A stretch of 64,000 nt of DNA from an uncultured Anaerolineales bacterium (GTDB lineage: Bacteria; Chloroflexota; Anaerolineae; B4-G1; SLSP01): contig CAZTEO010000002.1 in the NCBI GenBank assembly GCA_964612845.1, forward strand, positions 1,690-65,689, written 5' to 3'. Each line of letters opens with the position of its first letter. Within the stretch, counting starts at the first letter, position 1. Both the position numbers and the translations under genes were made by a program. A model generated the notes under the pieces. That model worked only from the letters and a program-made list of their open reading frames with translations. It ran no database searches and had not been told where the DNA came from. Shown piece by piece: positions 2,271 through 56,695 of this stretch.

Positions 2271-2301
2271 GTTGGGGACGCCAGTCTCTGGGAGGGATCA
2301 G

Positions 2302-4850: not shown

Positions 4851-5174
4851 AGTCTTGGAGTCCATAAGAAACATAGATCCCCGTCGTCACAAGCCTCACT
4901 CATCTGTGTCATTGCAGCCTGTCGCATCGGTTGACGGCGACGTGAACTTATGTTTTGTAGGTCTCTTGCCCTGTCACATTACGTAGCAACTCATTTGACC
5001 TTTACCAGAGATAGGCTGAGTCTGAATCTCTGATTCATTCAGGGTGTCGTCTTTTATATCCTCGTTAGTTAGACCTTGTCTTCTTTACAAGTGTAGTGCA
5101 CCATGGTGGAACTCAGATAATAGCCCCTGCCGCATCCACAGCTGGAGCAGGGAGTAGGTTTGAGGAGGATTTGC

Positions 5175-26268: not shown

Positions 26269-27000
26269 TCAGTGAGCGGTTCGCGTTGCCTCTACAAAAG
26301 CCTTAAATAGAGGATACATGGTGGGATCAATCTTGACCATGGCTTCGGGATGCCACTGTACACCCACAACGAAGGGGTGATCTGGCATTTCTAAGCCCTC
26401 AATGATCCCATCCGGGGCTCGCGCTACTACGTGCAAACCATCTCCTGGTTTGCTGACGGCTTGGTGATGCGCGCTGTTGACGTCAAATTCCGTGCCAGCT
26501 AGAATCTCTGCCATCCTGCTCTTTGCTTCGATCGCTACTTTGTGGACGCTGTTTTCCATAGGACGCCCTGACACATAGGCGTGCTCGATGGTATCCGAAA
26601 CTTGCGCGGTTATATCCTGGTAGAGCTCGCCGCCCAAGGCCACGTTTAGCACCTGATGACCGCGACAGATCCCGAGAATGGGGAGTCCGCGTTCTAATGC
26701 GGCTTGGACCAAGCTTAGTTCAGAGCGATCCCGTTGATCATCCACGCCACCCATCCAAGCGGCAGGCGTTTGATGATAGTACGCAGGTGCAATATCCTCT
26801 CCACCGGAGAGCAGAATACCATCTACTCGCCCCAACACGCTCTGCCAATCTTGTGTCTCCAAAACAGGAGGCAATATGATAGGTGTGCCGCCTGCTTTCT
26901 GAATGGCGCGCACATAGGTCTGTCCTACGGAGAACATGGGGCTGTTAAGCAAACGGGCGGAAGTGTCCTTCCGCCCAGTGATTCCGATCAACGGTTGCAT
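26269..27000 (-). CDS. class I glutamine amidotransferase, peptidase C26 / gamma-glutamyl-GABA hydrolase-like
   Basis: PLIGITG...GGEDIAP...ILGICRGHQVLNVALGG...VGVQWHPE gives the catalytic Cys-His pattern. Confidence 0.8.
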   Translation of the reverse strand: MQPLIGITGRKDTSARLLNSPMFSVGQTYVRAIQKAGGTPIILPPVLETQDWQSVLGRVDGILLSGGEDIAPAYYHQTPAAWMGGVDDQRDRSELSLVQAALERGLPILGICRGHQVLNVALGGELYQDITAQVSDTIEHAYVSGRPMENSVHKVAIEAKSRMAEILAGTEFDVNSAHHQAVSKPGDGLHVVARAPDGIIEGLEMPDHPFVVGVQWHPEAMVKIDPTMYPLFKAFVEATRTAH

Positions 27001-27084
27001 ATCAAAAAGCGAGTTGCCTTAAGGGCCTGTAAAATATAAATTCCCGTTACTGTTAACCCAATGCGGCGAAGAATCAAGGAAACT

Positions 27085-27173
27085 GACGTTTGAGACTTTC
27101 CCCCGCGAATTCTCCTGATGACACGTGTAGAGTTGATTTAGGAGTCGGGAAGTTATGCTTTAACCAGCCTTTA
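27085..27173 (-). repeat. copy A of a roughly 90-nt dispersed repeat; its first three nt are the TAA stop of rplS
   Basis: Minus-strand reading: TAAAGGCTGGTTAAAGCATAACTTCCCGACTCCTAAATCAACTCTACACGTGTCATCAGGAGAATTCGCGGGGGAAAGTCTCAAAC. Aligns with copies B and C at roughly four-fifths identity by eye. Confidence 0.7.
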
Positions 27174-27521
27174 GCGCTTCTCCTTCAGACGCGCAGCCTT
27201 GCCTCGACGGTTACGCAGATAATACAGTTTGGCCCGGCGGACTTTTGCCCGACGGACGATGTCGATTTTCTCAATGCGCGGGGAGTGCAGCAGGAATGTA
27301 CGCTCTACGCCGATACCGTGAGCTGCAATGCGTCGCACGGTGAAACTCCTGTTCACGCTTCCCCCGCGAATACTGATGACGGTACCCTGAAAGACCTGGA
27401 CGCGTTCTCTTTCACCTTCCACAATTCGCAGGTGAACTTTGACGGTATCGCCAGGTCGAATATCTGGTAGTTCCGCCGCAGGCTTGACCATTTGGCGTTC
27501 TAAAGATTCAACCAAGTTCAT
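27171..27521 (-). CDS. rplS: 50S ribosomal protein L19
   Basis: [71 protein letters not shown] is unmistakably L19. Confidence 0.95.
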
Positions 27522-27704: not shown

Positions 27705-28664
27705 TCATTTCACTCTTAGACGCCACCCTGCGCGGAGATAATCTCCATCCCGGGGGAGACCGCGACTGTCCCACAAGTGACCGTTCCACTTCCAGAACTG
27801 TTCCTTCGTCATGCTGTAGCGGTTGATCAACCCCCAGATGGTGTCATTTGCTGTGGCTGTCACGTATTCGGGTTGTGGAACGGTAGCTGTGGTCGTGGGT
27901 TGTCCTTCTGGTGACGAGGTGGCTTCTTCTTCACAGGGTATGCTGGCGGCTTGTAGGATAGGCCAGCACGCCTTCTCCGCCGTGACAGCGTGGTAGACAC
28001 TGAAAAAATCGACTCCATGCTCGATAATGGCTTCAACCCAGGGGATGAGATTTTCTGGTAGAAAGGGCTCGTTTGGACGCCCCCCGTAGGTGGGAGAGAG
28101 GACCGGATAGATGGCTGGAGTAGCGTTCCAGATCAAGCTCAAATCACTGAAGGATTTATAGATATCTCGATGGATCATCTGCTCTGCGTCAGGGTTCCAT
28201 TTCGGAAAGCAGAGCGGCATCCACCCACCCTGGCAGAGTGGGGCCAAAGCTTCCAGTGTCTGACGATCCGGCAGATGAAGTAAGGGCGGGGTTGCCAACA
28301 GCAGATTTGCTAAGGGTATTCCTGACGGTTCTAGTTCATCAACCAAAGGCTGGATTTGGGTCCGGGTTATCAGCGCACGTCCGAGGAAGAGCACAACATC
28401 GCTATAGCCCAGTTCGAACGCGCGTTGTATGGCATATAAAGTATCCTGTGGGCTACGATCAGTGACGTGAATCCAAGCTAAGGCACGGAATCCGAGTGTA
28501 TGCACCCGATCTAACAGTTCGGGTGCACTCTCTGGGAAGTAGAGCGGCCCATGTCCTACTTTGACAAGCAAGTAACGGGCTTCGGTCTGGGTTGCCATTT
28601 CTACGGCTCGCTGCAGATCGTAGGAATGTGCAAGCCATATCCCCTTGCCACAAAGTTCAGTCAT
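27705..28664 (-). CDS. LysM-domain protein with an N-terminal alpha/beta (TIM-barrel-like) domain of unknown family
   Basis: The C-terminal 50 aa, YVTATANDTIWGLINRYSMTKEQFWKWNGHL...GDYLRAGWRLRV, match the LysM pattern. No signal peptide or TM helix at the N-terminus. Confidence 0.6.
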   Translation of the reverse strand: MTELCGKGIWLAHSYDLQRAVEMATQTEARYLLVKVGHGPLYFPESAPELLDRVHTLGFRALAWIHVTDRSPQDTLYAIQRAFELGYSDVVLFLGRALITRTQIQPLVDELEPSGIPLANLLLATPPLLHLPDRQTLEALAPLCQGGWMPLCFPKWNPDAEQMIHRDIYKSFSDLSLIWNATPAIYPVLSPTYGGRPNEPFLPENLIPWVEAIIEHGVDFFSVYHAVTAEKACWPILQAASIPCEEEATSSPEGQPTTTATVPQPEYVTATANDTIWGLINRYSMTKEQFWKWNGHLWDSRGLPRDGDYLRAGWRLRVK

Positions 28665-28700
28665 CCAGCCCCCTTGTACAACCTAGAAAATCTCTCATGC

Positions 28701-28737
28701 AAAAGGCGGGACTCAAGGGGTTCCCTCGCGTCCCGCC
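28701..28737 (-). terminator. rho-independent terminator after the acidic PETG-tail gene
   Basis: Minus strand: GGCGGGAC ... GTCCCGCC followed by TTTTG (plus-strand arms at 28705-28712 and 28730-28737). Confidence 0.6.
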
Positions 28738-28754
28738 GCTAACAGCAGGTTAAA

Positions 28755-28781
28755 CGTCGTTTACGCAGCGCGTAAACGACG
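28755..28781 (-). other. perfect 12-bp inverted repeat with a 3-nt loop spanning the stop codon of the acidic gene
   Basis: CGTCGTTTACGC (28755-28766), loop AGC, GCGTAAACGACG (28770-28781). The stop codon at 28761-28763 lies inside the stem. Confidence 0.5.
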
Positions 28782-29483
28782 CGCCAGAACAATCAGACCG
28801 ATCAGTAATCCTCCGGCGATGACCAATATCAGTTCCCCCAGGCCCGTCTCAGGCGTTTCATCTGCGGTCTCCTGCGCGGTCTCTTGCGAGGAGGTGGCGG
28901 TTGCTCGAGGGGTTCGTGTCGGTGTTGGTGAGCGTCGAGGCCGGGAGGTGGCGGTCGCTGTCGTCATGGCGGTCTCTTCGTCTTCAGCGCCTTCAGCCTC
29001 TTCTTCCTCATCACCGTCTATATCAGCTTCTTCCTCGACTTCTTCTGACGTGGCTGAAGGCTCGGGGGTCGGTGTATTTGTCGCTGCGATCACCGGCGTG
29101 TTTGTCGCTGTGGGTTCAGGTGTCTCCGTTGCGGTAGGTTCCTCGGTTTCCTCCGGCTCCCCTTCCTCTCCTGCGTCTACCTCCGCTTCAGATGGTGTTT
29201 CTTCTGAGGCAGGGGTGTTCCCGTTGACTACCATCTCCGCGATCGCGGTGTTTGTCGCCTGGATCACGGCATTGCGCGCTGATTGCTGTGCCTGCATCCG
29301 GGGATTTAATACGAGGACCCAGAGAATAAATACCCCAATGGCTAATAAGAGCAAGCCACCGAGAGCTGCCACTGCTATGAGGAAGGTCTTATTCTGAGAT
29401 TCCGCTTCTTGATCTTCAAATTCTTCTTCCTCGGGCTCCATGAAGATATCTTCGCCAAAGGCATCGCGCAGATCATCAGACAT
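28761..29483 (-). CDS. highly acidic, low-complexity bitopic protein with an LPXTG-like C-terminal sorting-signal architecture
   Basis: Acidic N-terminus, TM FLIAVAALGGLLLLAIGVFILWVLVL, and a long E/T/P-rich region. The C-terminus is ETPETG-LGELILVIAGGLLIGLIVLA-RRLRAA (motif, hydrophobic helix, basic tail). Confidence 0.55.
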   Translation of the reverse strand: MSDDLRDAFGEDIFMEPEEEEFEDQEAESQNKTFLIAVAALGGLLLLAIGVFILWVLVLNPRMQAQQSARNAVIQATNTAIAEMVVNGNTPASEETPSEAEVDAGEEGEPEETEEPTATETPEPTATNTPVIAATNTPTPEPSATSEEVEEEADIDGDEEEEAEGAEDEETAMTTATATSRPRRSPTPTRTPRATATSSQETAQETADETPETGLGELILVIAGGLLIGLIVLARRLRAA

Positions 29484-29536
29484 ATCTTGCTCCTTATTCC
29501 ATGAGATATATTATCTATGCTCAAACCATTTTTAAA

Positions 29537-29565
29537 ACTATACCATAAAAGAAAGGGGATAGCAA
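29537..29565 (-). promoter_or_regulatory. promoter TTGCTA-17-TATAGT for the acidic gene, bracketed by an 8-bp inverted repeat
   Basis: Minus strand: ATACCATAtttcTTGCTAtcccctttcttttATGGTATAGT. The repeat ATACCATA / TATGGTAT (plus-strand 29540-29547 and 29570-29577) flanks the -35 and overlaps the -10. Confidence 0.5.
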
Positions 29566-29616
29566 GAAATATGGTATCTTAATAGCAACTTTACCGAAAA
29601 AGCCAGTTGATAATGG

Positions 29617-30669
29617 TCACAGAACGCGCTCTAGATTGGCAAACGGAATGAAAACGCGCTCCTCTTCGTCAAAGTCTATGTAAGCGCCGCGAAGTCTTGC
29701 TCCAGTCTCTACTCTAACCAACCTTGAGGGTAATTCCGATATTGTGCCTGTCATGCCCAGATAAGGGGCTCTGAGTGCGCGTACACGGTCGCCGACGTCC
29801 ACAGGCTCCTGGGGTGCAATCGGCAGGCCATTTTGCGCGGGCATAGGAATGGCGATGTAGGGTCGTTGTTTAGCACGTCTGCAGGTCATACATGCGCTTA
29901 TGGCGGCTTCGCGCCCGTCCAATGACTGCAGCAGGTCGAAGGCCGTTGCGGACATGGGAACGTCTCCAATGCCTTCAGTGGCGATAACGGGTAGCTCAAT
30001 CTCCTGGAGGCGCGGAATTAAGTCCGCCGGTATACCGCCGACGATGATGCCACGGACTTGCATCTCGATGGCTTGTTCCAGGGCTTCTTCATCTAGCGAG
30101 ACTCCCCCGACGACAATCGATCCCTGCGCCGAGGCATCTATACGGCGCGCTCGCAGCGGATGATGTGGAGCTCGAACCACCAAACGGAGCACACCGTAAG
30201 TTTCCTGATTATTACCCCATGCGGCTTGAATGAGGCCCCCGTGAGTTTGAATGATCACACCTTTTCCGGGCAGGACGTGTGTGATTCTACCGGGTACAAG
30301 GGCCGATAGCTGATAAGTCACCGGGTTGGCCTCAAGGAGAAGCCGTCCTCGCCCGTATCCTGTGACGAAGCCGGAGAAGGGGGCGCGGCAAACCCGCCCG
30401 CCCAATCCACCACGCGAGGCCAGGATCTCATTTTCTTCTATGGCGTCACCGACATCGACTTGTAGTGTACTGCGCACGCGTTTTGGGGGGAGGCTGAGAG
30501 CCCGACTCAAGTTTATGATCTGGAAATCGGGCAATTGCGTTGCTTCTGCCACGATCTGATGAGGCTCTACGGTTGCATTTGCTTCCACCAGAACGTCACC
30601 GGCTCTTGGCAGGGTGCGCTTTATCTCGATAAGGGTCAGGGGATTGATGATGCTGAACGGCAAAAGCAT
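29617..30669 (-). CDS. soluble hypothetical protein (N-terminal barrel-sandwich/lipoyl-like hybrid motif, central alpha/beta region, C-terminal KOW/SH3-like barrel); last gene of the seven-gene operon
   Basis: GGAGGA 7 nt upstream of ATG 30669, inside the end of the preceding gene. VDVGDAIEENEILASR...RVCRAPFSGFVTGYGRGRLLLE resembles barrel-sandwich hybrid motifs. No family assigned. Confidence 0.6.
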   Translation of the reverse strand: MLLPFSIINPLTLIEIKRTLPRAGDVLVEANATVEPHQIVAEATQLPDFQIINLSRALSLPPKRVRSTLQVDVGDAIEENEILASRGGLGGRVCRAPFSGFVTGYGRGRLLLEANPVTYQLSALVPGRITHVLPGKGVIIQTHGGLIQAAWGNNQETYGVLRLVVRAPHHPLRARRIDASAQGSIVVGGVSLDEEALEQAIEMQVRGIIVGGIPADLIPRLQEIELPVIATEGIGDVPMSATAFDLLQSLDGREAAISACMTCRRAKQRPYIAIPMPAQNGLPIAPQEPVDVGDRVRALRAPYLGMTGTISELPSRLVRVETGARLRGAYIDFDEEERVFIPFANLERVL

Positions 30670-30672
30670 ACG

Positions 30673-32430
30673 TTATCCTCCCACATCCCAGACCCACCGG
30701 CGTAATAGCCGGCGGCGCTCTTCAACGGCTTCTGGAAGTTCTAAGGGACGTCCTCGCCCGTCGACCACCAAGCCAACCAGTCCACCCAGAGCCTGGATTT
30801 TTCCGCCCTTTCCGGGGCCTCCTAGGCCTACGTCTATCTGTCGAGAGGGTTTGAGCTCCAACGTGGCTCGCTGACCGGGGAGAAGCGGCCAGACTTCCAA
30901 CTCGCCCTCGTGCGCTTCAACGGAGAGCTCACTGCCGTCATCGTAGTGAATCGTCATGGCTAGAATCACATCCCCTGAGCGGCCTCGCCCTACCGGAGAG
31001 ATGACCGTGCCCAGAGAGACTAGCGTGCCAGCATCCAATGCTGAGGCTGCGGCCAACGGTTTGATGGCTGCAATGGCTCCTAACGCAGGTGCTGCACGTC
31101 TGATGTCCAGTAAGATGGTAGAGATTCCTACCGGTTGGACACCATCTAGCACGGTCAACAGGGCGTGACCAGGCCGGGGCATATTCACGATGCCCCCGCC
31201 AGAGATAAGGATCGGGTCCAGTTTGGGCATCAGTTCTGGCTCGCGTGAGGCTGCCTGGCCCATCTTCCAGGTCGATTTTGCGACCTTTAGAGCCATTTGC
31301 AGCATCTCGCGCGCGATAGCTTGTTCAATCCAGAGGTCGTTTAGCGTCTGCGGTACAGTGAGCGGCTGCAAAGTTCGATTATGCAACAGCGCTTGGACTT
31401 TTGCGATTTCGATCTCTTCTGGCATCCAGTAGGCGATACGAGCCACGTTCTCCATCTCTACCCAATCTACGGAATTGTGGATAAACCCTTCTCCACCGCG
31501 AACCGTTGGGTAGAGATGGCCTTCAAAGCAGGCCATCACGGTTGTGCTCGCTGCTCCTAAGTCAATGCCCAAGGCGCCTCGATCTGGATTGTTCTCTCGG
31601 TGCCAGAGAAATTCCACCACTTGACCAAACGTGGCTGCTGTGGGTTGAAGCGCAAGATTGCTCCATGCTGCAAGCGTGTCTGTGCCTGGGGTGCGGAACA
31701 GGCTCTGCTCGATAAATTCCTGTTCTAACAATGTTTGGGCGGGTCTCAGGTATTCAACGTCCGCTGAGGGGCGGACGTTGTCGACCACATCGACCTCGGT
31801 CAGCTCTCCCAGCAATTTGGTGATTCGGCTGCGGAGCTGACTGTTGCCCGCATAGAATAGGTGGGGACGTTGGTCGCTCTCCAACATCGAAGCGCCCAGG
31901 GCAATGGCATCGGCCAACTCCATGACGGGACGGCTGGCCCCACCATCGACGCCTCCAACCAAGAGAATGGCATCAGGCGCAATATCTCGCACTGACTGCG
32001 CCCAGGCCTCCTCTGGCGAGCGGAGGCTGCCTTCACGCGAAAGCATGGTCTCGATGGTGGTGTAGGTGCCCATCGCCACGCGGTGGGCGCTTTCCAAGCT
32101 CATCTCGCGGACGAGTCCCGCCAGCACAAGCCGAAGCGGATCGGCTGCGCTGAGGATGGCTACAAACGCATCAACGCCGACGAGCCCTTCTCGTGGGGTA
32201 ACCAAGTGTCCTTCCAGGAAGAACTCTCGGCCTATGATGGCTTCGATTTCTTCTATGGCTTCGATGACGCCTGCACTGATATCTTCCCAAGGAGCCTCAA
32301 GGGTTGTCGGCGTCTCTGCTTGTGCAATGAAACGGTACTGATCCTCAACACGTTCCAGGAGCAGAACCTTGGTGGTCACTGCCCCGCAATCAGCAACGAG
32401 TATGGATTCGATGGACGTCTCTTCAGGCAT
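30673..32430 (-). CDS. GlmL/MutL-family ASKHA (actin-fold) ATPase-like protein
   Basis: ILVADCGAVTTKVLLLE (phosphate-1 pattern, as in DIGSTTTK of GlmL) and AILLVGGVDGG (as in GGTDGG of GlmL). 585 aa. Confidence 0.6.
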   Translation of the reverse strand: MPEETSIESILVADCGAVTTKVLLLERVEDQYRFIAQAETPTTLEAPWEDISAGVIEAIEEIEAIIGREFFLEGHLVTPREGLVGVDAFVAILSAADPLRLVLAGLVREMSLESAHRVAMGTYTTIETMLSREGSLRSPEEAWAQSVRDIAPDAILLVGGVDGGASRPVMELADAIALGASMLESDQRPHLFYAGNSQLRSRITKLLGELTEVDVVDNVRPSADVEYLRPAQTLLEQEFIEQSLFRTPGTDTLAAWSNLALQPTAATFGQVVEFLWHRENNPDRGALGIDLGAASTTVMACFEGHLYPTVRGGEGFIHNSVDWVEMENVARIAYWMPEEIEIAKVQALLHNRTLQPLTVPQTLNDLWIEQAIAREMLQMALKVAKSTWKMGQAASREPELMPKLDPILISGGGIVNMPRPGHALLTVLDGVQPVGISTILLDIRRAAPALGAIAAIKPLAAASALDAGTLVSLGTVISPVGRGRSGDVILAMTIHYDDGSELSVEAHEGELEVWPLLPGQRATLELKPSRQIDVGLGGPGKGGKIQALGGLVGLVVDGRGRPLELPEAVEERRRLLRRWVWDVGG

Positions 32431-32433
32431 GCA

Positions 32434-33081
32434 TCAGGCTCCGAGTGTTGGGAATAAAAGATCGATTATGAATGTCCACCAACGTTCCACTAGGATGGTG
32501 AGGGCAGATGTCAGCGCGCCAGCAAAAGCGACCCCCAGTGCTATCGCCACTATGGATTGCCCCGCCCAGCGTACACCCTTCTCAAATTTGGAAGGCTCAT
32601 GGGTTAACAGGTGGGCGTGGGGTGAAAAGGCAAAAAGTGCCAACAGGACGCCTACTATCATGAGAACGCCCTCCAAAAGAAGGCTCAAGCCTTGATCCAA
32701 CACCAGTGCTTGCCCAGTATTTACCATCTGGGGAAGCAGCGTGCCTAAAAGGGCACCGGAGATGGCAACAGCGCCTCCGACACCCAGGAGCAAGCCCATG
32801 GATATGTTACCTACGGGAGAGAGCCTTGGAAATCCCTTGAGAAGCAGGAAAAAGCCGAATATAAGTGGAGGGATGATAAACAGTGGATGTTGTTCGCCTG
32901 TTACACCGTCCATGATCCATTGAACCAGAAAGTGGGTGGTGATTGCGAAGGCATAGCCTGTGCCAACGCCTACCAACACTGCCACAGCCCAACGATAGAG
33001 TGGATTGTCTCCTAGCAGGTATCCCAAAAAGATCGTGAAGGTAAAGGCTATCCCGATCCAGCCGACAATATCCAGATTCAT
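32434..33081 (-). CDS. polytopic membrane protein (about 6 TM), unknown family
   Basis: ATG 33081 is preferred (AAGAGGAG 8 nt upstream; junction TAG-C-ATG with the upstream gene). The track start GTG 33090 is also possible. Hydrophobic throughout. Confidence 0.55.
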   Translation of the reverse strand: MNLDIVGWIGIAFTFTIFLGYLLGDNPLYRWAVAVLVGVGTGYAFAITTHFLVQWIMDGVTGEQHPLFIIPPLIFGFFLLLKGFPRLSPVGNISMGLLLGVGGAVAISGALLGTLLPQMVNTGQALVLDQGLSLLLEGVLMIVGVLLALFAFSPHAHLLTHEPSKFEKGVRWAGQSIVAIALGVAFAGALTSALTILVERWWTFIIDLLFPTLGA

Positions 33082-33082
33082 G

Positions 33083-36000
33083 CTAAGCACTCCTCTTGCG
33101 CTTGCGGAATATTAGGGAGGCTCCTGCGCCTATTAAGATCAACCCTGCAGCTACCCACTGCGTAAATGTGACGGCGTTCGCCTGTCGTGTCACATTGATA
33201 TTAGGTATGTCGCGTGCTTGCCAGTACGCCGCAGCTCCTTGAATTCCAACGAGCCAGCCATCAACTTCTGTGCTTTGCAGATACGGACGGGCCATTGGAC
33301 CGGCGGCCGCGCTGACTGCAACCCCAAGGGGGTGTGCAGCATCGCCTAAAGCTGTGTTCTGCTCTATCCACCACCGCAATCGCTCGGGACGCGCCGCGAC
33401 GACTAGTAGCAGCTCACTCTTTTCATCATTGGATGTGCTAGCCAGAAAACTCGCGACTCCGCTGCTGCCGCCCGCCCAGTAACCCAGGCTCTCAACGGTC
33501 GATGGCTCGTCCGCCAGGATAGTTTCTTCAGCCCAAGCCAGGCGCTCTTGTATCAGCGCTTCGCCAACCGGAACTGTGGTCAGAATTTGTACCTGCGCCT
33601 CACGTGCCAGGAGGTGGTCGAGTGTGGCCTCGACGAGAGATTGCATTTCGCCCGCTTCGGCCGGCCCGTATTCCAGTACCAGGGCGACGGTATCGCCAGC
33701 CTGGAGGGTGTCTACTACGGATACCAGCGACGTGACGTTGGGTTGGGTGGGCTGCGAGAAGAGGGCGTCGGGCAAAAATCCCCAAATCACAACGACCACA
33801 GCCGCACAGAGTACCAGAAGTAGTCCGGCGCGTAGCAGGCTTTCCGGCCAACGTGTCTTGGTAGGCTTTTGTCGAACGATGTGCTCTTCGCTGGGTGGGC
33901 GCTCCAGTAGCTCTTGCCAGAGTTGTGCTTCTTCAACAAGGTGGTCTGGAGGCTCGAGGCGTAGTGCCAGCTGGAAGTCCGCAGGCATATCTACCAATGG
34001 GCGCGAAGCCAGTGCGTTCTGCATCCCGCTCAAAGGGCCTTCAACCTCGGGTTCGATGATGGCTTCTGGCTCAACATCCACCGTGCGGGTAATTTCTGTC
34101 GCCTCGCCGGTCGGTCGGAGGGTCTCTACCCATTCAGGGATCTCCGCCCGGACGAGTCCCTTCTCAGTCAATTCCTCAATTTCTTCTTCTGATAGGCCAT
34201 GTTCAGGAAGGGGACCGGTCCCGGGAGGTTGAAGATTGCTTAGCCAGCTTGGCAGATCTGCCTGTTCGAGTCCCTCAGGGAGGGGCGCTTTTGAAACATC
34301 TTCGCTTTTGACAGGCGCCGGTCCCAGATCTCGCAGCCATTCTGGAATCTCGCTTTCCCCCACATCTTCAGACTCTTCCGCCATAGAAATGGGCGCTTGT
34401 TCTCTCTCTGGACGTTCCGGAGGCTCTTCTTGGATCGAGCCGGGGACTTCTCTTGCCTCAGGCTGTGTTCCTATCTCGTCTATTGCCTTTCCCTGGTCTG
34501 GGAAGGGGCTAGGTTCTGCCCGTTTTTCCTCCGCTATTTCCGTTGGTTTGAGATCTCCTAGCCAATTTGGTAGGTCCTCTGCTTGTTCTTCCAGAGATTC
34601 CGGCAGCTCGGTAGAGACTGCTACCGGTTCGGTGTCTGGACCTTCTGCTTGCATGCCAGATAGCCAGTCAGGCAGAGCTTCTGCTTCTTCCGGCTGTGCT
34701 CCTGAAGCCATTCCTTCGTCTTCGCCGGACTCTGTGATGTCGAACGGCGTAGGTTCTGCTTCATCCAGGGGCGTTTCCGATTGGGTAGTCGCTGACTCAG
34801 GTGCGCCTTGGATACTGGCGAGCCAGTCAGGGAGATCATCTTCTGTGTCCATCTCCAGCTCTTCACCGGACCCTGACATAGCAAAGGGAGCAGAAGGTTT
34901 TTCGTCCAGACCTGTTTCTGCTTCAGTCACCCCTGGCGATTCGCCTTGCACACTGGCTAACCAATCAGGGAGCTCCTCTTCCGGCTCTGCGTCTGCGGCT
35001 GGCTCCATCTCTAACTCTGGTGCTTGTGATTCGCTCTGCAGACCGGCAAGCCAATCAGGGATTTTATCTTCCGGCTCTGTCGCCGCAGCCGGCTCTATCT
35101 CTGGCTGTGTTTCTGGTGCAGGGGATTCGGCTTGCACGTCGGCAAGCCAATCAGGAAGTTCCTCTTCCGGCTCTGTGTCTGTGGCGGACTCTATTGTTGG
35201 CTGTGCCTCTGGCGCGGGCGATTCGGCCTGCAGGCCAGCGAGCCAGTTAGGGAGCTCGTCCTCTGTTTTGTCTTCTGATTCTTCTTCCGCCCTCTCCATC
35301 TCTGGGCGTGCCTCAGGTTCAGGCGCCGCTGGCGCTTGTGATTCGGTTTGTGCGTCGGCAAGCCAATCAGGGAGTTCCTCTTCTGCATCCTCTTTGGGTT
35401 GAGCGTCAGAAAGGGTCGCAGGTGCCTGCGCTTGAGCAGCAGGTTTTGGCTCAGGTGTTGTGTCTTGATCCTCTGTGAGCCAATCGGGGATTTTTCCCTG
35501 TGCGGCTTTTTCTACGGAGGGGGCCGCATGACTATCTGCGGCCATAGCCGCCAGCCAGTCTGGTGTCTCTGAAGGCGCATCTTCTATCTCGGAAGTCTCA
35601 CTATCGTCCGCAGCTAAGTCGCGTAACCAATCTGGAAACTCTCCCGTGGGTGTATCTAGCGCAGGGGCGTCCGTTTCCTCTATATGACCAGTTAACCAAT
35701 CCGGTGTTTCATCCCTTTCAGACTCTATTGGACCTCCAGGGGAGTTGTGTACTGGAACGGCAGGAGACGCTTCTTCGCTTGTTCCTACTTCGTCTGAGAC
35801 AAAAAATTCTTGTTCTGCCGAGGGGCCTCCCTCCGCATTATCTTGGTCGACGCCAGACAGCCAATCCGGCAATTCGCCTGGCGCAACCTCATCCTCGTTC
35901 TCGTCCTCCTCAACAAACGGGGGAGGGGAGGCTTTACGTTCGGCTGGCGAGGTCTGAGATGGCGTCTCATCCAGAAGTCCTTGTAGCCAATCTGGGAAGG

Positions 36001-36289
36001 TTTCATCATGAGGCCTTGGTTCACTCTCTTCGTCCGGAGATGAACGGGTTGGTAGAGAAAGTGCTTTCATTCCTACCCCGGTATCCATCACAGGATCTTT
36101 TTTCGGGGGCACCATGCCCTCTGCCGAAACCAGGCGAGCGTGACATTTGTCGCAGAAGACGCTGCCTACCGGGTTGACGGCGCCACACATGGGACACCGA
36201 ATGCGTGCGGCTTGTAATTCGCCTCCGCACTCATTGCAAAAGCGGCTACCATCTCTATTAAGCGCTCCACACTTTGAACAACGAATCAT
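33083..36289 (-). CDS. 1068-aa double zinc-ribbon protein with about 630 aa of acidic PDWL-motif repeats, then TM, outside domain, TM and a basic tail
   Basis: N-terminus has CSKCGALNRDGSRFCNECG and CPMCGAVNPVGSVFCDKCH. There are 17 P-[DNES]-W-[LV] motifs. TM helices are LLLVLCAAVVVVIWGFL and WVAAGLILIGAGASLIF, followed by RKRKRSA. Confidence 0.7.
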   Translation of the reverse strand: MIRCSKCGALNRDGSRFCNECGGELQAARIRCPMCGAVNPVGSVFCDKCHARLVSAEGMVPPKKDPVMDTGVGMKALSLPTRSSPDEESEPRPHDETFPDWLQGLLDETPSQTSPAERKASPPPFVEEDENEDEVAPGELPDWLSGVDQDNAEGGPSAEQEFFVSDEVGTSEEASPAVPVHNSPGGPIESERDETPDWLTGHIEETDAPALDTPTGEFPDWLRDLAADDSETSEIEDAPSETPDWLAAMAADSHAAPSVEKAAQGKIPDWLTEDQDTTPEPKPAAQAQAPATLSDAQPKEDAEEELPDWLADAQTESQAPAAPEPEARPEMERAEEESEDKTEDELPNWLAGLQAESPAPEAQPTIESATDTEPEEELPDWLADVQAESPAPETQPEIEPAAATEPEDKIPDWLAGLQSESQAPELEMEPAADAEPEEELPDWLASVQGESPGVTEAETGLDEKPSAPFAMSGSGEELEMDTEDDLPDWLASIQGAPESATTQSETPLDEAEPTPFDITESGEDEGMASGAQPEEAEALPDWLSGMQAEGPDTEPVAVSTELPESLEEQAEDLPNWLGDLKPTEIAEEKRAEPSPFPDQGKAIDEIGTQPEAREVPGSIQEEPPERPEREQAPISMAEESEDVGESEIPEWLRDLGPAPVKSEDVSKAPLPEGLEQADLPSWLSNLQPPGTGPLPEHGLSEEEIEELTEKGLVRAEIPEWVETLRPTGEATEITRTVDVEPEAIIEPEVEGPLSGMQNALASRPLVDMPADFQLALRLEPPDHLVEEAQLWQELLERPPSEEHIVRQKPTKTRWPESLLRAGLLLVLCAAVVVVIWGFLPDALFSQPTQPNVTSLVSVVDTLQAGDTVALVLEYGPAEAGEMQSLVEATLDHLLAREAQVQILTTVPVGEALIQERLAWAEETILADEPSTVESLGYWAGGSSGVASFLASTSNDEKSELLLVVAARPERLRWWIEQNTALGDAAHPLGVAVSAAAGPMARPYLQSTEVDGWLVGIQGAAAYWQARDIPNINVTRQANAVTFTQWVAAGLILIGAGASLIFRKRKRSA
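34976..35257 (-). repeat. three near-identical in-frame tandem units (32, 32 and 30 aa) inside the PDWL-repeat gene
   Basis: ELPNWLAGLQAESPAPEAQPTIESATDTEPEE / ELPDWLADVQAESPAPETQPEIEPAAATEPED / KIPDWLAGLQSESQAPELEMEPAADAEPEE. The DNA-level repeat is visible (ggcaagccaatcagg...tcttccggctctgt recurs). Confidence 0.8.
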
Positions 36290-36300
36290 CTGTTCACTCT

Positions 36301-36915
36301 TTACTCATCAACATACGGTCGGGTCACAAAAATCGCGCGGAGGCCGGCGATGACGCTTCCTAGCGCGACTCCCAGAAGAAGGCCACGCATACCTGCTGTA
36401 GCAAGGACGCGTTCAATCCAATTGGAGATGTCCCCCACGATGGGCAAGGGCGCTGCTCTGATCAACATGAGTACAACGACGAGCATGAATAGCAAGCTGC
36501 TGACCGTTCGCCGATTTCTTACGGCTCGGACACCTGCCGCTAGCAACGTCACGGCAGTCAGAGCCAAAAGTGCCGATTCACCTGGAACCAGCACGGCACG
36601 CATGACATTTTGTCCCCAAATCCCAATTTGACCTACTGTAAATAATTCCCACAAGATTAAGCCGGCTGTGCCCAAGGCAAAGAGAACAATGATCAGGCTG
36701 GGTATGCGCCCCCGCCCTTTGCGTTGGAGACGTTTCAGATTGGCGCGCAGTAGATTTAGGAATGCGAGTGTAAAGGCAAAACATCCCAATATCATGGCCC
36801 ACTGCAGAAGGATTATGCGGATCTCCCGTAAGGGCGAAATGGGCCAGAATGTGCCCGCCAATACAGTAAGTGCTGCTAAGACGGCAATAGCTGTTGCGAT
36901 TACACGAAGTATCAT
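36301..36915 (-). CDS. polytopic membrane protein (about 6 TM), unknown family
   Basis: ATG 36915 lies 1 nt after the upstream TAA. Hydrophobic, with the basic loop KRLQRKGRGR. Confidence 0.55.
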   Translation of the reverse strand: MILRVIATAIAVLAALTVLAGTFWPISPLREIRIILLQWAMILGCFAFTLAFLNLLRANLKRLQRKGRGRIPSLIIVLFALGTAGLILWELFTVGQIGIWGQNVMRAVLVPGESALLALTAVTLLAAGVRAVRNRRTVSSLLFMLVVVLMLIRAAPLPIVGDISNWIERVLATAGMRGLLLGVALGSVIAGLRAIFVTRPYVDE

Positions 36916-36916
36916 C

Positions 36917-37681
36917 TTACCCGATTCCTATACCTAGCGCTGCAAGCACTGCGAGCACCACAATGCCTCCTGCCACAACCCAGTGTAGGATATATTGAGC
37001 TTGTAGAGCTGCCCGATATGTGGGGTGCTGATTTGCGACCGCGCTTCCCAGAAAGTGCTCTTCTCCAATCATCAGATTTTCTTGGGAGAGGGCCGGGAAC
37101 AGAGCCGCCAGTCCTATTGGCGAGGTCGTACTTGCTTTTGTCGGTGTTTTCCGTCGAGCAGCCGTGTCGCTGATAAAGGTAGCTTCTACATCGAAGAGTC
37201 CTAACATCAGGTTGGACCCGACGCCTTTTTCGTAAAGATAAATCGAAGCCATTGCGGCGTAGATTGTGGGTGAGGGGGCAAGGAACTGGACGAGCGTCGG
37301 ACGATAGCGATCTACGTTGCCCAACCGGGCGTATGCCCGGCGCATCCAGTCATCCGCCAAGAGATAGAGTGTGGGATCACCCGTCGTGATGATAGGTGGT
37401 GTATCGTATGCAGCAGAAAGATCGGCTAAGCCAGTGATGCTCTCCAGCGCTGCAATTGACGTTATGGCGTGTTCTTGCCACAGTGACCCGCTTCCCAGCG
37501 TGGCGTGAATCAGTGTGCCCTCTTCAGCCGCGCGACCCACTTCATCGGCGAGATCAGAGAAAACGGGGATTTTCTGCGCTTCCGGCGCGTCTCCTTGATT
37601 CTGGTTGCGAAGTCCTTGGGCGAAAATAGCAATCGCAGCCAACAACAGTATCAGCAGGCCAAAAGTTGCACTTATCGTCAT
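36917..37681 (-). CDS. bitopic/hairpin membrane protein: N-terminal TM, ~200-aa domain, C-terminal TM
   Basis: ATGA overlap with the upstream gene (37678-37681). TM helices are FGLLILLLAAIAIFA and ILHWVVAGGIVVLAVLAALGIGIG. Confidence 0.55.
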   Translation of the reverse strand: MTISATFGLLILLLAAIAIFAQGLRNQNQGDAPEAQKIPVFSDLADEVGRAAEEGTLIHATLGSGSLWQEHAITSIAALESITGLADLSAAYDTPPIITTGDPTLYLLADDWMRRAYARLGNVDRYRPTLVQFLAPSPTIYAAMASIYLYEKGVGSNLMLGLFDVEATFISDTAARRKTPTKASTTSPIGLAALFPALSQENLMIGEEHFLGSAVANQHPTYRAALQAQYILHWVVAGGIVVLAVLAALGIGIG

Positions 37682-37935
37682 GGGGTGGACACCTCTTTTT
37701 CGACCAACTGATCTTGCAGACGCAGAAGTATATCGGGATTAGCGAGAGCTCGCTCTAAAGGTGCTAGGTCCTGCGTGGACATAAACGGCTCAAGTATCCA
37801 GATTGCTGGGAGTATTAGACCCTGCATCACGTAGAGAAAATCTAGCAGCGGCAAAGCCCAATCCACCAGATGGTATGTCTCTAACCATGCTTCCCACTTC
37901 CGGTAAACTTCGTCGAGAGGTAGATTTGCCTTCAC
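37678..37935 (-). CDS. 85-aa hypothetical protein, first gene of the seven-gene operon
   Basis: GTG 37935 with GGAG 8 nt upstream. One hydrophobic segment, LDFLYVMQGLILPAIWIL. Confidence 0.45.
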   Translation of the reverse strand: MKANLPLDEVYRKWEAWLETYHLVDWALPLLDFLYVMQGLILPAIWILEPFMSTQDLAPLERALANPDILLRLQDQLVEKEVSTP

Positions 37936-37985
37936 AATCTCGTCTCCGGTCGGTCTCTCTATTAAGGTCGAGATTCCCCCGTGTC

Positions 37986-38082
37986 TAAGGGCTTGTTAAA
38001 AAATAACGTCCCGACTCTTGACTCAACTCTACACGTTTTATCAAGAGATTTCGCGTTTAAAGTCCAGAAAACAAGCCTTAAC
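37986..38082 (+). repeat. copy C of the roughly 90-nt dispersed repeat, plus-strand orientation, 50 nt upstream of (and antisense to) the seven-gene operon start
   Basis: TAAGGGCTTGTTAAAAAATAACGTCCCGACTCTTGACTCAACTCTACACGTTTTATCAAGAGATTTCGCGTTTAAAGTCCAGAAAACAAGCCTTAAC. Perfect 7-bp central hairpin CTCTTGA (38015-38021) / TCAAGAG (38041-38047). Termini AAGGGCTTGTT / AACAAGCCTT are complementary. Confidence 0.7.
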
Positions 38083-38407
38083 TATCAAATTTTGCGTATT
38101 TGTCACATAGATTGCCATCAACAGGTAACTCTATGTTTACGCGCCCTGATCTTTGCCTAAGATGTTCTCTTTTGACCAGCGGTTGCCTTCACACTGCGTC
38201 CTGAATGCATCACAGATGCTGAGGAAGTTTTCAATACTTCTTTGACGCTTCCAGTATAGCACGATTCAAAAAGGGTGTAAAGCCATTGTGAGACCACGGT
38301 TAGAAGTTCGCTGGTTCCTGGCTCTGATTTCAATACGGTGTGTCTCGTTGTTTGATAAAACCAAGACGGCGTCACTAATTGGGGCGCCAATTCGCTAAAA
38401 TTCACCC

Positions 38408-38435
38408 TTGTCAAAAACTGGGGATGTGGTATATT
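38408..38435 (+). promoter_or_regulatory. promoter TTGTCA-16-(TGG)TATATT for tRNA-Gly
   Basis: TTGTCA 38408-38413, extended -10 TGGTATATT ending at 38435. The tRNA starts at 38447. Confidence 0.5.
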
Positions 38436-38446
38436 GTTGAGAAGAT

Positions 38447-42411: not shown

Positions 42412-44922
42412 TTAGGATGATCTGGGGACGATATGGATGCGTGCGTCGCGCTCTCGGCCCCGCGCGCCAAAGGACCGCAGGTAACCTAGTAAATCGAACT
42501 TGGGACCGATCTCCAACTGTCCCACAAACTGCTCCCCCGCTACGTGGTACTGTCCGCTAAAGAGCCAGCGCTTCTTCAGCGCCTTCTCCGGCAGGACGAA
42601 GTGGTAGGTTTCTCCCTCGCGTCGCACGTTGTTTGCCACGTACTGCTCCTGCAGATAGCGGCGCAAGCGCGGACCGGCGTTGGGAAAGTGTGCCACCGGC
42701 AGTGTCAGCCGCAGGTCTGCCCGCGCAAACTCGCCAGGCACGAAATTCTCCTCGATCTCCAGAAGGCGGGTGCCGTGCGCGTCGGCGTCCGGTGGCGCGG
42801 CGAGCTCCCAGAGCAACTCGTCGACGTCCCAGGCTTCCAGCGCGAAGATCAGTTCGCCAGATGGTACGGGGAACTGATCCCGCAGCGTGTGGTGGGTGAA
42901 GAGCGCTTCCCGCACGCTGAGCAGGTTCGGCGCCAGCGCCGGGTACGCTTGCAGCAGGTAGCGGAAGACCCAGGCGTTGAGCCACGCCGGATCGGTGTGA
43001 GCGGCGACGGCGGGCACGCGCACGCGCGCGTAGACCGGGCTTAGGCGCCATTTGGTCCGCATCAGAGTGGGGAGTTGCTGTGTGTAGCTGGCTTGCTGCG
43101 GCGCGCGCATGGTGTGCGTGACGATGGCCTTCCGCTGCTCCGGCGAAAAGCAGGCATCGCAGCCCAGGCATGTGCCGGTCGCACCGTCGCGTCCCAGGCA
43201 GTAGCCGCGATCTACCCCGGCTTTGGCCTGCTGGTACGCCTCGTAGAGAAAGCCCTCGCGCACGCCGCCCCTGATGAAATCCAGTGGAAAGGCGTAGTCC
43301 GGGCCTTTTTCGCCCAGGAACACCGCGCTCCAGTGCCCGTGCGTCTGCATCCACGCCCGCAGCGCGTCCCAGTAGGTCGGATCGAGCCGGGTGTCGTAGC
43401 AGTAGCCCTGCTCCGCCAACGCGATGAGCGGTTGGTGCAGCCAGTGCCCACCCAGCGCCAGCACCTGTGACACAGCGTAGTCGGCCCAGGGCGTCGCGAG
43501 GCGGAACTCGACGCCCTGCGTCTCGCAGGCTGCTTTGACCGGGCCGACGATGGACGCCCACTCGTCCTCTTCAAGACAGAGCCGGTCGTGGCGCAGCGGC
43601 GTGAAGGGCATGCGTACCAGCCGCCCGGCGCTGACCACGATGCGCACGCCGGGATTGAGGCGGCTTCGCAGGTCGCGCAGCGCACTGATGAAGGCGTGGA
43701 ACTCGGTGAGGTCGGCCCCGGTCTCGTGCCCGGTGAGGATGTAGAAGAGTTTGAGCTCGCGGATCTTCTGGCGGAGCAGACGCTCCAGCACGCCCATGAT
43801 GGTCTTAGTCTCCAGGCTCTTCTGGAGGAAGGCGCGGAGGCGCGTGCTGATACCCTCGATGCCCAGGGTGAAGCTGCGCTTATCGGCGGCGACCTCGGCC
43901 TTGATCAGCCCCGGCGTGGTGTAGAGAAAGTCGATGCGCTGGCTCTTGACGCTGACACGGTCGAAGAGCCGGTTCAGGTCAAAGAGCAGGGTCAGAATGT
44001 CGGCGTGCGTGTTGAAGTTGAAGCTGTAGAGTTCCAGCACCTCGGGGCCGTGCGCGCGCTTGAGCCGCTGCGCCGTCGCTAGCACGTCTTCTAGCGGGAG
44101 TTCGCGGTAGGGCTTGCGGTCGTAGCCCTCGAAGCAGAAGGAGCAGAAGGCTGGACAGCCGTAGTTGATCTGCAGGCGCGCCGTGCCGGCCTGCTCGCCG
44201 TTAAGCAGCGGATAGTCGGTGAGCAGGTCGTTGGCGCGAGGCGCGGGGCAGATGGCTTTGGTGACGCGCTGCTCGGTGTCACGGTTCGCGAGCCAAAGAC
44301 CAGTCACGCTCGCGGCAGCTTGGTCGAGTCGATCCGCTTTTCTTTGTGAACCATGGTCGAGTAGCGTGCGGATCAGCGCCCCAACTTCACCCTCGCCCTC
44401 ACCAAAAAATAAAGCATCCACAAAACTATCACCCGTCGGCGTGACCAAAGCCTGGCTTGCCAGAGCGTTGGAGCCGCCCAGCACGATGATGGGCCACGTC
44501 TCGTCGCGCTGGCTCGCCATCAGCGGGATGTCGGAGTGCAGGAAGAGGTACGGTAGGTTGATGAGTTCTAGGGTGTAGGCGTTGGAGATAAGGACGAGGT
44601 CAAAGTCGCGGGCAGCGTGCAGCGACTGAACACCTACGAGGAAGGGCACGCCGGCCTCGGCGAAGCGGGCGCGGTCGTGCTCCGGCGGGAAGAAGGCGAA
44701 ATCGACGTAGGCCTCAGGCAGCGCGCGACGGGCGGCCTGGTAGAGGAAGAGGTGCGGCGTAGAACGATCCACGTCGCGGTAGGGCGAGAGACGCACGATG
44801 AGGACGCGCGCGGTCGCGGCGTCGAAATCCGGGTTGCGGAACGTCGGATTCTCGCGCGGCACGTAGGCTTCGGCGCTCTGGAACTGGGACCAGCTCTTTT
44901 CAAAGAAATCTCGGTAGGACAT
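42412..44922 (-). CDS. B12-binding-domain radical SAM protein fused to a DUF2344-like C-terminal domain (TIGR03960/TIGR03936-type)
   Basis: Radical SAM cluster motif NYGCPAFCSFCFEGY (CxxxCxxC). N-terminal Rossmann-like region. 836 aa with a long C-terminal extension. Confidence 0.8.
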   Translation of the reverse strand: MSYRDFFEKSWSQFQSAEAYVPRENPTFRNPDFDAATARVLIVRLSPYRDVDRSTPHLFLYQAARRALPEAYVDFAFFPPEHDRARFAEAGVPFLVGVQSLHAARDFDLVLISNAYTLELINLPYLFLHSDIPLMASQRDETWPIIVLGGSNALASQALVTPTGDSFVDALFFGEGEGEVGALIRTLLDHGSQRKADRLDQAAASVTGLWLANRDTEQRVTKAICPAPRANDLLTDYPLLNGEQAGTARLQINYGCPAFCSFCFEGYDRKPYRELPLEDVLATAQRLKRAHGPEVLELYSFNFNTHADILTLLFDLNRLFDRVSVKSQRIDFLYTTPGLIKAEVAADKRSFTLGIEGISTRLRAFLQKSLETKTIMGVLERLLRQKIRELKLFYILTGHETGADLTEFHAFISALRDLRSRLNPGVRIVVSAGRLVRMPFTPLRHDRLCLEEDEWASIVGPVKAACETQGVEFRLATPWADYAVSQVLALGGHWLHQPLIALAEQGYCYDTRLDPTYWDALRAWMQTHGHWSAVFLGEKGPDYAFPLDFIRGGVREGFLYEAYQQAKAGVDRGYCLGRDGATGTCLGCDACFSPEQRKAIVTHTMRAPQQASYTQQLPTLMRTKWRLSPVYARVRVPAVAAHTDPAWLNAWVFRYLLQAYPALAPNLLSVREALFTHHTLRDQFPVPSGELIFALEAWDVDELLWELAAPPDADAHGTRLLEIEENFVPGEFARADLRLTLPVAHFPNAGPRLRRYLQEQYVANNVRREGETYHFVLPEKALKKRWLFSGQYHVAGEQFVGQLEIGPKFDLLGYLRSFGARGRERDARIHIVPRSS

Positions 44923-47207: not shown

Positions 47208-48365
47208 TTAATCCGAGACCGCAATCAGCGGCAGGTAGAGCTGTGTGAAATTGGTAGGGCGCGGGCGCTTCTCCAGCGCCGCCAGTGCGTCGTAGGCCTC
47301 CGTCGGCTCGCCATCGGCTGATGTCGCGTCGTAACGGCGCAGCGCGAAGAACTGACTGGCTTCACAGAGCACGGGATAGTAGAAGTCATGCCAGTCCAGG
47401 TTCCAGACGAACATGCCTTCCAGCCAGGGCCAGTGCCGGTCGGCATAGTCGAAGGCGCGCACTAGATAGTCGGCCTGCGTCGTCTCGGAGACGGCGTGCC
47501 AGCCAAAGGCCGACCAGAACGCTTCATCCTCGGTACAGGTCGCGCGTCCGTCCTCCGCCGGGTGGCGCAGCCAGTTGAACTCCGTAGCCCAGATGGGCAG
47601 GTGGCTCAGGCCATGGTCGACCAAAATCTCTCGCACCAGCTCGACGCCGCGAAAGGCGAAGCCATTGGAGACCGCAGTGGGGTCCTGCTCCGGCGCATAG
47701 GCGAAGCCGTAGGGATGATAGCCGAAGGCGTCCATGCAGCCAGCAGCGCCTTCCGCCAACATCGCCTGGAGGAAAAGCTGCTCGTCCATGGCGTCGCAGT
47801 TGTTGCCTGCCCAATCCTCACAGGTACCGGGGATCCGTCCCGTCGGAGCGAGCCCTCCGCTGACCACCAGCGCGTCGGGATTGTGGGCCTTGATCGCTTC
47901 GTGGGCTGCGCAGAGCATTTCTGTGAAGCGCGCCGGATCGGGTGTCTGGCCCCAGCCGTAGGCGCGCAGATTCGGCTCGTTGCAGATCTCGAAAGCTTCC
48001 ACGGTGCCGACGCTGGTGGTCACCATCTCGGTGACGTGGGCGCGCCAGGCGTCGAGGTCGTCAACGTAAGGGCCGCAGTGCAGGCCAAAGAGCACCGCTT
48101 GCGGCAGCCGTCGCTCGGGCAGTCCGCTGTACGTCTCCCAGAGTTTGACCCACTCCAGGCCCAGCGGCTCGATCAGCGGCAACCGGTCGAGATCGCGGAC
48201 GTTGATGCCGTACCGTAGATGCGGTGTGGGATAGGTCGGCGTGACGAGCGAGGCGTCCAGCGGGGCCGCCTGGACGAAGCGGGAGGTGGGCGCGCCAAAG
48301 AGACCTACTTGGAGCAGCGCGGTCAGCGCAACAGTGAGCAGCGCCACCCAGGGGAGACGCTGCAT
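47208..48365 (-). CDS. secreted glycoside hydrolase, clan GH-A (TIM barrel) type
   Basis: Start set to ATG 48365. Signal peptide MQRLPWVALLTVALTALLQVGLFGAPTSRFVQA. Acid/base-like FEICNEPN and nucleophile-like IWATEFNW. Confidence 0.6.
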   Translation of the reverse strand: MQRLPWVALLTVALTALLQVGLFGAPTSRFVQAAPLDASLVTPTYPTPHLRYGINVRDLDRLPLIEPLGLEWVKLWETYSGLPERRLPQAVLFGLHCGPYVDDLDAWRAHVTEMVTTSVGTVEAFEICNEPNLRAYGWGQTPDPARFTEMLCAAHEAIKAHNPDALVVSGGLAPTGRIPGTCEDWAGNNCDAMDEQLFLQAMLAEGAAGCMDAFGYHPYGFAYAPEQDPTAVSNGFAFRGVELVREILVDHGLSHLPIWATEFNWLRHPAEDGRATCTEDEAFWSAFGWHAVSETTQADYLVRAFDYADRHWPWLEGMFVWNLDWHDFYYPVLCEASQFFALRRYDATSADGEPTEAYDALAALEKRPRPTNFTQLYLPLIAVSD

Positions 48366-48408
48366 GGGAACCTTCGACGTGCCGTTCAAGCGATGGGCGA
48401 CTCTTCGT

Positions 48409-56536: not shown

Positions 56537-56601
56537 ATAACCTGATAGCCAAAAAGTATGGGAAGCTTGTCCATAAAGGCAGTGCGTCTTAGAACTATCA
56601 T

Positions 56602-56695
56602 CTGAGGCTTGTTTTGGGCTTCAAACGCGCATTCTCTTGATGACACGGGTAGAGTGTATTCAGGAATTGGGAAGTTATGCCTTAACAAGCCCTTA
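56602..56695 (-). repeat. copy B of the roughly 90-nt dispersed repeat; its first three nt are the TAA stop of the GNAT gene
   Basis: Minus-strand reading: TAAGGGCTTGTTAAGGCATAACTTCCCAATTCCTGAATACACTCTACCCGTGTCATCAAGAGAATGCGCGTTTGAAGCCCAAAACAAGCCTCAG. Terminal GGCTTGTT / AACAAGCC are complementary. Confidence 0.7.

Follow-up and report, generated by a model that had tools for sequence, protein, structure and literature searches.

Correia elements of Neisseria are about 100-155 bp long, have inverted termini of ~26 bp, lie between genes at a TA-containing target, which they duplicate as TA, and are co-transcribed; their functional sites comprise promoters, IHF-binding sites and RNase III sites. 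The element family described here is similar to them in size, inverted termini and intergenic location. It differs from them in sequence, to which theirs is unrelated, and in its duplication, which is TWA and not TA, and no functional signals or selection of the Correia type were detected in it.

Another likeness is found in Nezha, a family of Anabaena/Nostoc (Zhou et al. 2008, as summarized in PMC3184786). In that summary Nezha, like the present element, is 130-170 bp long, non-coding and intergenic, with terminal inverted repeats (TIRs), flanking direct repeats, a stable predicted fold and a mobility deduced from filled and empty sites, which are treated there as the accepted criterion for bacterial MITEs. 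The two are, however, unrelated in sequence, and their hosts belong to different phyla (Chloroflexota, class Anaerolineae, for the present element). A partner of Nezha has been identified, according to the same summary: the IS ISNpu3, whose termini are the same. For the present element we found no such partner. The 3-bp TWA duplication of our element is shared with IS1237, a member of the IS5 family (IS427/IS1031 groups, with 3-bp duplications) whose direct repeat is TTA/TAA (PMC2516522), and with PIF/Harbinger elements and their Tourist-type MITEs, whose target-site duplication is TWA (PMC4482050).

The repeat was first noticed in a 64-kb stretch of DNA from an uncultured bacterium (below, the window, meaning the whole stretch). 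The original prediction listed three copies, A, B and C, and named as candidates a MITE/REP-like mobile element and a family of structured 3′-UTR or intergenic RNAs. The evidence set out below makes it highly probable that the repeat is a MITE, namely a decaying, non-coding family of ~166 nt in uncultured Anaerolineae. As an element this is of an ordinary kind, and the family seems to be undescribed so far; in the literature searched we found no descriptions of MITEs for Anaerolineae.

Results

The three copies had been placed correctly, both in position and in strand: an nhmmer profile built from them recovered all three from the 64-kb window, at E 6e-34, 9e-31 and 2e-28, and the next match followed at only E 0.07. 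They can be aligned over ~95 nt, and the sequence blocks that they had been said to share are present. The element is, however, considerably longer than the ~90 nt assumed at first, measuring ~150-166 nt, with ~166 nt for a full copy. When one genome per species was scanned with a 23-nt core motif, only two matches were obtained, both in MAG F17_49 (DAOTUH01; Anaerolineae), and in these two copies, L001 and L002, as well as in copy A, similarity runs on for ~70 nt beyond the 3′ boundary drawn originally. The similarity ends in ...CGGGAACTTATATTTTTACAGGCCC, and this is GGGCTTGTTAAAGAATAACTTCCCG, the sequence of the 5′ end, in inverted, complementary form. A long-form profile could be aligned over the full length of copies A (27176-27011) and C (37984-38149), but only over the first ~105 nt of copy B. 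The distance between the element and the next start codon, previously given as 60-85 nt, is ~20 nt for copy A and ~4 nt for copy B.

Complementary ends had been noted in copies B and C (GGCTTGTT/AACAAGCC). The complementarity is real, but AACAAGCC, which had been taken for the 3′ end, lies inside the element and repeats its first 8 nt in inverted form; the block is found in every long copy and is the best conserved of the 3′ half. The true 3′ end, ...ACAGGCCC, is itself an inverted copy of the 5′ end. We rejected the reading of a short element of ~95 nt, ending at AACAAGCC and flanked by TAA...TAA in copy C, because the 166-nt profile matches copy C over its entire length and because all long copies share an internal ACAAGCC-TCA block.

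In addition to the three copies the window holds a fourth, the relic copy D, which brings it to 4 copies in 64 kb; the related loci L018/L020 (L018 is GCA_964457985.1) carry 3 in 20 kb, and MAG F17_49 carries 2. The element has a consensus of ~166 nt and is non-coding, and the window copies measure 148-158 nt, apart from the truncated ones. All copies of the family are situated between called genes. Copy A follows rplS (27171-27521, minus strand) and precedes a Peptidase_C26/GATase gene (26269-27000); copy B lies between a GNAT acetyltransferase gene (56693-57223, minus strand) and the gene for a 634-aa membrane protein; copy D has an S1-domain gene on one side and a metallo-beta-lactamase/rhodanese gene on the other. 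Copy C is flanked by a tRNA-Gly/Cys/Leu cluster and by the start of a conserved operon on the minus strand, a GTG at 37935, from which it stands 50 nt away, as had been reported. Copy A has lost ~11-13 nt relative to its orthologue in the relative L014. Beyond ACAAGCCTCA, local alignment of the 3′ part of copy B to the family consensus was no better than that of shuffled sequences on either strand. As far as the scans show, the family is restricted to a narrow clade of Anaerolineae.

Two sets of further candidates were discarded. At either end of the interval 50506-50707 stands a TIR-like 14-mer with 3 mismatches, but the sequence in between is unrelated to the element, and we attribute the pair to chance. 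Metagenome matches to the core motif (L003-L005) were all 23-nt coincidences within coding sequence. Separately, we noted at 50688-50705 of the window, shortly beyond a cold-shock gene's terminator, the sequence GGGCTTGAACAGGCCC, which resembles the element's two termini joined directly to each other; TWA is lacking on its flanks, and the palindrome is probably due to chance.

Table 1. Positions of the element copies and their parts in the window, and trinucleotides flanking individual copies
Feature	Position	Strand	Sequence or basis
Copy A, element body, 148 nt	27023..27170	-	nhmmer long-form profile, E 8e-52; alignment to L014, L001 and L002
TAA, rplS stop codon and 5′ target-site duplication of copy A	27171..27173	-	rplS ORF 27171-27521, Pfam Ribosomal_L19; rplS of empty-site relatives also ends in TAA
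3′ target-site duplication of copy A, TTA (one substitution)	27020..27022	-	exact TAA in the L014 orthologue; alignments
5′ TIR of copy A, AGGCTGGTTAAAGCATAACTTCCCG	27146..27170	-	arms 27146-27162 and 27030-27046, 82% complementary (repeat search)
3′ TIR of copy A, CGGGAATTTATATTTTACAGGCCC	27023..27046	-	repeat search and TIR helix count
Central hairpin of copy A, CTCCT ... AGGAG	27112..27144	-	internal inverted repeat of one subfamily
Copy C, body, full-length but diverged, 158 nt	37989..38146	+	nhmmer profile positions 2-169, E 1.4e-25; E 1.6e-39 with the 10-copy profile
Copy C, flanks TAA and TGA	37986..37988 and 38147..38149	+	
Copy B, recognisable 5′ part, ~101 nt	56592..56692	-	nhmmer profile positions 1-106, E 3e-26
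TAA, GNAT stop codon, adjoining copy B	56693..56695	-	ORF call and Pfam GNAT
Remainder of the site B insertion	56541..56591	-	absent from the 14-15 nt spacers of relatives; no longer alignable to the family
Copy D, relic, 3′ half only	4884..4966	+	nhmmer profile positions 81-163, E 1.5e-08; E 3.7e-09 with the 10-copy profile
Target-site flanks, L014 orthologue of copy A			5′ TAA, 3′ TAA
Target-site flanks, L002			5′ TAA, 3′ TAA
Target-site flanks, L018b			5′ TTA, 3′ TTA
Target-site flanks, window copy A			5′ TAA, 3′ TTA (one substitution)
Target-site flanks, window copy C			5′ TAA, 3′ TGA (one substitution)

The TIRs are imperfect and ~25 nt long (GGGCTTGTTAAAGAATAACTTCCCG against the reverse complement of CGGGAACTTATATTTTTACAGGCCC). 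A repeat search returned arms of 17-18 nt that are 82-83% complementary in copy A and in L002, and a 14-mer at 27020-27033 on the plus strand, TAAGGGCCTGTAAA, has 2 mismatches to the 5′ end of the element. Across 10 copies, 74-75% of the cells of the 25-pair TIR helix were paired, compared with 36-48% when the partners were slid against each other. The termini of L002, the best-preserved copy, are paired in its predicted fold (-51 kcal/mol, z -4.3).

The best-preserved copies have the identical trinucleotide on both sides, that is, a 3-bp direct repeat (Table 1), which is degraded in B, L001 and L018c. We take the duplication to be the 3-bp TAA/TTA (TWA), which falls within the range of IS5-family and PIF/Harbinger elements, 2-4 bp at a TNA/TWA/YTAR target. 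Possibly it is the 4-bp CTWA instead, which is the duplication of IS5 proper; a C precedes the 5′ TWA in 5 of 7 copies of the present element.

Because relatives have retained the order of the genes surrounding rplS, sites could be compared directly, and empty orthologous sites at the 3′ ends of rplS and of the GNAT gene, for which a search had been proposed at the outset, were indeed found. Site A is filled in the window, where the spacer between rplS and the GATase gene is 170 nt, and in the closest relative (L014-16; rplS 97% identical), where it is 181 nt. The same spacer is only 20-30 nt long in L017, L018-20, L021, L022 and L026; the rplS identities of the first four to that of the window are 89%, 87/86%, 85% and 82%. 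Several Logan assemblies and one contig of GCA_054919955.1 contain an rplS identical to that of the window. At site B, the spacer downstream of the GNAT gene is 156 nt in the window, as opposed to 14-15 nt in two relatives (L027/L028 and L029/L030). For copy C, no exact empty site could be defined in the distant relatives L025 and L026, whose upstream synteny differs.

The lineage of L018-20, which is empty at site A, has three copies elsewhere within 20 kb and none at the sites occupied in the window: one copy lies upstream of rplS, another, in reverse, between two operon genes, and the last upstream of a glycosyltransferase gene. L026 is empty where L018 has copies a and c. Since the filled sites differ from lineage to lineage, the element must have inserted independently in at least three lineages. 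The family is thus short and non-coding, has TIRs and a target-site duplication, occupies multiple non-homologous sites and shows filled and empty orthologous sites, which are the characters expected of a MITE. One half of the mobile-element candidate, the MITE, is borne out by the TIRs, the TWA duplications, the filled and empty sites and the lineage-specific positions. The other half, a REP-like repeat, is not, because the element has TIRs and duplications instead of being a palindrome of 20-40 nt.

In copies A and B, as originally stated, the leading TAA is also the stop of the upstream gene, rplS for A and the GNAT gene for B. It had been proposed that the element donates this codon. For rplS this is contradicted by L017 and L018, whose rplS genes already have a TAA stop although the site is empty. 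Hence the element was inserted into an existing TAA, which the duplication has preserved as the stop codon. Nor does the element target the 3′ ends of genes as such: it targets TAA/TTA, and the excess at stop codons (2 of 8-9 insertions) is not significant (p about 0.26-0.31). TAA is the stop codon of 23 of the 55 genes of the window, whose intergenic regions contain 162 TWA sites. On the assumption that insertion is tolerated at these two kinds of site alone, stop codons make up ~12% of the tolerated targets, and two such insertions are unremarkable. We propose that TAA stops would make good targets in a genome of 57% G+C: insertion into one would regenerate it through the duplication and leave the upstream protein unchanged, and selection would remove insertions at the numerous intragenic TWA sites.

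The situation at site B is different, for the GNAT genes of the two relatives stop with TGA and TAG, not TAA, and their last codon is CGC, compared with CAT in the window. The protein consequently ends RLH-TAA in the window (56693-56701) and RLR-TGA or RLR-TAG in the relatives (L027:2579-2587, L029:8269-8277). The insertion may have altered both the last codon and the stop codon of the GNAT gene.

The copies are decaying. Between the window and its 96-97% relatives, orthologous A copies differ at 15.9% of aligned positions, with 15 gap columns, and the first 80 nt of copy C differ by 21%. In the same comparisons, six flanking genes show differences of 10-21%, mostly 18-21%, at third codon positions, and other spacers differ by 3-15%. 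The orthologous copies thus diverge as fast as third codon positions and showed no purifying selection, indicating that nothing constrains them. In the relative L023, copy C has lost its 3′ half (a deletion of >80 nt) together with 16 nt of flank. The copies in the window look like old, inactive relics.

Discussion

One property of the family is not predicted by pure neutrality: with respect to the adjacent gene, 8 of 9 independent insertions are oriented alike (p about 0.04, two-sided binomial), in a small sample in which several insertions (B, L001, L018c) have no clean 3′ end or no clean duplication. The bias would be explained if the MITE had been secondarily exapted, its co-transcribed inverted termini of ~25 bp forming a duplex that acts on mRNA; for the Correia elements of Neisseria, RNase III cleavage, effects on mRNA stability or operon uncoupling have been reported. 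Copies A, B and D do lie within co-directional gene pairs, where read-through would transcribe them, and the predicted fold of a full copy has a long stem formed by the termini. We nevertheless consider exaptation very unlikely. The copies evolve neutrally, with termini and hairpins eroding; neither a sigma-70-like promoter nor an intrinsic terminator was found inside the element, outward-directed ones included; the insertions sampled are few; and the terminal duplex would form in either orientation, so that the duplex alone leaves the bias unexplained. For the more specific proposal, that the transcribed MITE, with its terminal duplex and a conserved hairpin loop of 20 nt, is a processing or stability module, the chances are slim. 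It starts from the sense orientation of nearly all copies and from their location in co-transcribed spacers; were it true, the module would uncouple or tune the expression of adjacent genes in this clade of Anaerolineae, rplS and the amidotransferase gene that follows it being examples. The orientation bias, or the conservation of the internal terminus copy, could also reflect the architecture of transposase binding or orientation-dependent selection.

The same bias, with 8 of 9 insertions sense to the neighbouring gene, would suit a structured RNA family, derived from 3′ UTRs or intergenic, whose hairpin and closing stem function as a processing site, a stabiliser or a regulatory RNA. This was the second candidate of the original prediction, and in our view it is highly improbable. 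The central hairpin on which it leaned is indeed present in A (CTCCT/AGGAG), B and C (CTCTTGA/TCAAGAG), with one C-G to U-A double change between copies. It does not, however, hold across the family: it is broken in the L014 orthologue of copy A, and L018b and L018c have a different central segment. Across 10 copies, 73% of its cells are paired. RNAalifold predicted 0 pairs for the consensus of these 10 copies, and neither of two further measures rose above column shuffles. The covariation score was 0.115, against 0.107 for shuffles, and was reached by 121 of 500 of them; the percentage paired in the specified structure (TIR helix plus hairpin) was reached by 45 of 500. Copies B and C fold better than shuffled sequences (z -2.3 and -3.1), but copy A does not (z +0.4), and both strands fold about equally well. 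The folding data therefore match inverted repeats in DNA rather than an RNA under selection. Rfam returned nothing in the window at gathering score but the three tRNAs of the cluster next to copy C and nothing credible for copies B, C and L002 even at E up to 10, in line with the first impression that the repeat is no known riboswitch or RNA family. Moreover, orthologues diverge at the synonymous rate and have lost the hairpin (L014) or half of the element (L023), and close relatives lack the element altogether at the same sites. For RNA-motif screens this is a caution, as a decaying transposon can mimic inverted repeats and compensatory changes when few paralogues are compared.

It is scarcely conceivable that the repeat is a palindromic element of the REP/BIME or IS200/IS605 type, which a Y1 (HUH) transposase would have moved in single-stranded form. 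Although it has hairpins, an intergenic location and the same short sequence (TAA) always at its 5′ side, it also has long TIRs and a target duplicated on both sides, which are absent from IS200/IS605 and REP elements, it measures 166 nt and lacks the GTAG/CGTC head in contrast to the 20-40 nt palindromic REP unit (PMC3733652), and the 50 window ORFs scanned include no HUH transposase.

On the evidence above, the MITE is most probably a DNA transposon of ~166 bp with imperfect inverted repeats of ~25 bp, inserted by cut-and-paste into TAA/TTA (possibly CTWA) with duplication of the target on both sides. It would have been mobilised in trans by a DDE transposase of the IS5-family type (IS427/IS1031/ISL2-like, bacterial relatives of PIF/Harbinger). 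The ends of IS5-family elements commonly start with GGC or GAG, and Tourist termini are GGCCTTGTT-like. The termini of the present element begin with GG(G)C and fit the IS5 family, to which the element would belong on the evidence of its ends. Judging by these termini and the TWA duplication, the chances that an IS5-type partner moved the element in trans are about even.

No transposase domain, HUH included, was found in the 50 window ORFs scanned (of 55), and no autonomous IS with matching termini was found in the scanned ORFs or in about 300 kb of related loci. Searches for a parent IS or further copies, with the terminus against viral contigs and with the consensus by BLASTN against plasmids, gave no match, and the scan of the genome collection with the core motif yielded the two MITE copies only and no autonomous partner. 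The window's single Phage_integrase protein (59104-60012) resembles XerC/D and has syntenic counterparts in relatives.

For annotation, the MITE family is apparently a new one, and the association with stop codons is explained by the choice of TAA/TTA as target. The repeat can break metagenomic assemblies and inflate intergenic spacers, and its filled and empty sites are possible lineage markers within the clade.

Several observations were made at the related loci and elsewhere in the window. In L018 (9224-9626; also in L019 and L020), the copy upstream of rplS is split at about nt 20 by the insertion of another, unlike non-coding element of ~235 nt, which has inverted termini of its own (GGTTCTTTGGGATTTCGCCGG ... 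CCGGCGAACTCCGAAAGAGCC) and an apparent duplication of ~8 nt (AGAATAAC). It looks like a second, nested MITE-like family, of which the window holds no copy. Downstream of the same rplS-upstream copy, ~270 nt (L018:9630-9900) with repeated GTTCACT...GAAAAA motifs are absent from L026, L017 and the window and may be a third inserted repeat. Four independent Logan assemblies of the window's strain (L007, L008, L010 and L011) stop 224-232 nt past the rplS stop codon, ~60-70 nt beyond the element; the repeat or strain variation may break them there.

Near copy C, a promoter-like site at 38408-38437 on the plus strand (TTGTCA, a 16-nt spacer and TATATT with an upstream TG) lies directly 5′ of tRNA-Gly (38447). 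As it is ~260 nt past the end of copy C, the copy need not belong to the tRNA transcript. On the minus strand, a gene string (36301-37935 and 27705-36289) is conserved in order across all the Anaerolineae relatives fetched, running 85 aa, DUF6754, 204 aa, zinc-ribbon protein, 215 aa, PF13941 'MutL', 350 aa, 240 aa, LysM protein and rplS. Its large acidic zinc-ribbon protein has PDWL repeats and is 1068 aa long in the window and 852-946 aa in relatives. Four ORFs, encoding MoeA, an MTS methyltransferase, a radical-SAM protein and an unassigned 411-aa product (within 1035-3414, 42412-44922 and 47208-48443), have a third-position G+C of 0.77-0.82, compared with 0.5-0.7 elsewhere in the window.
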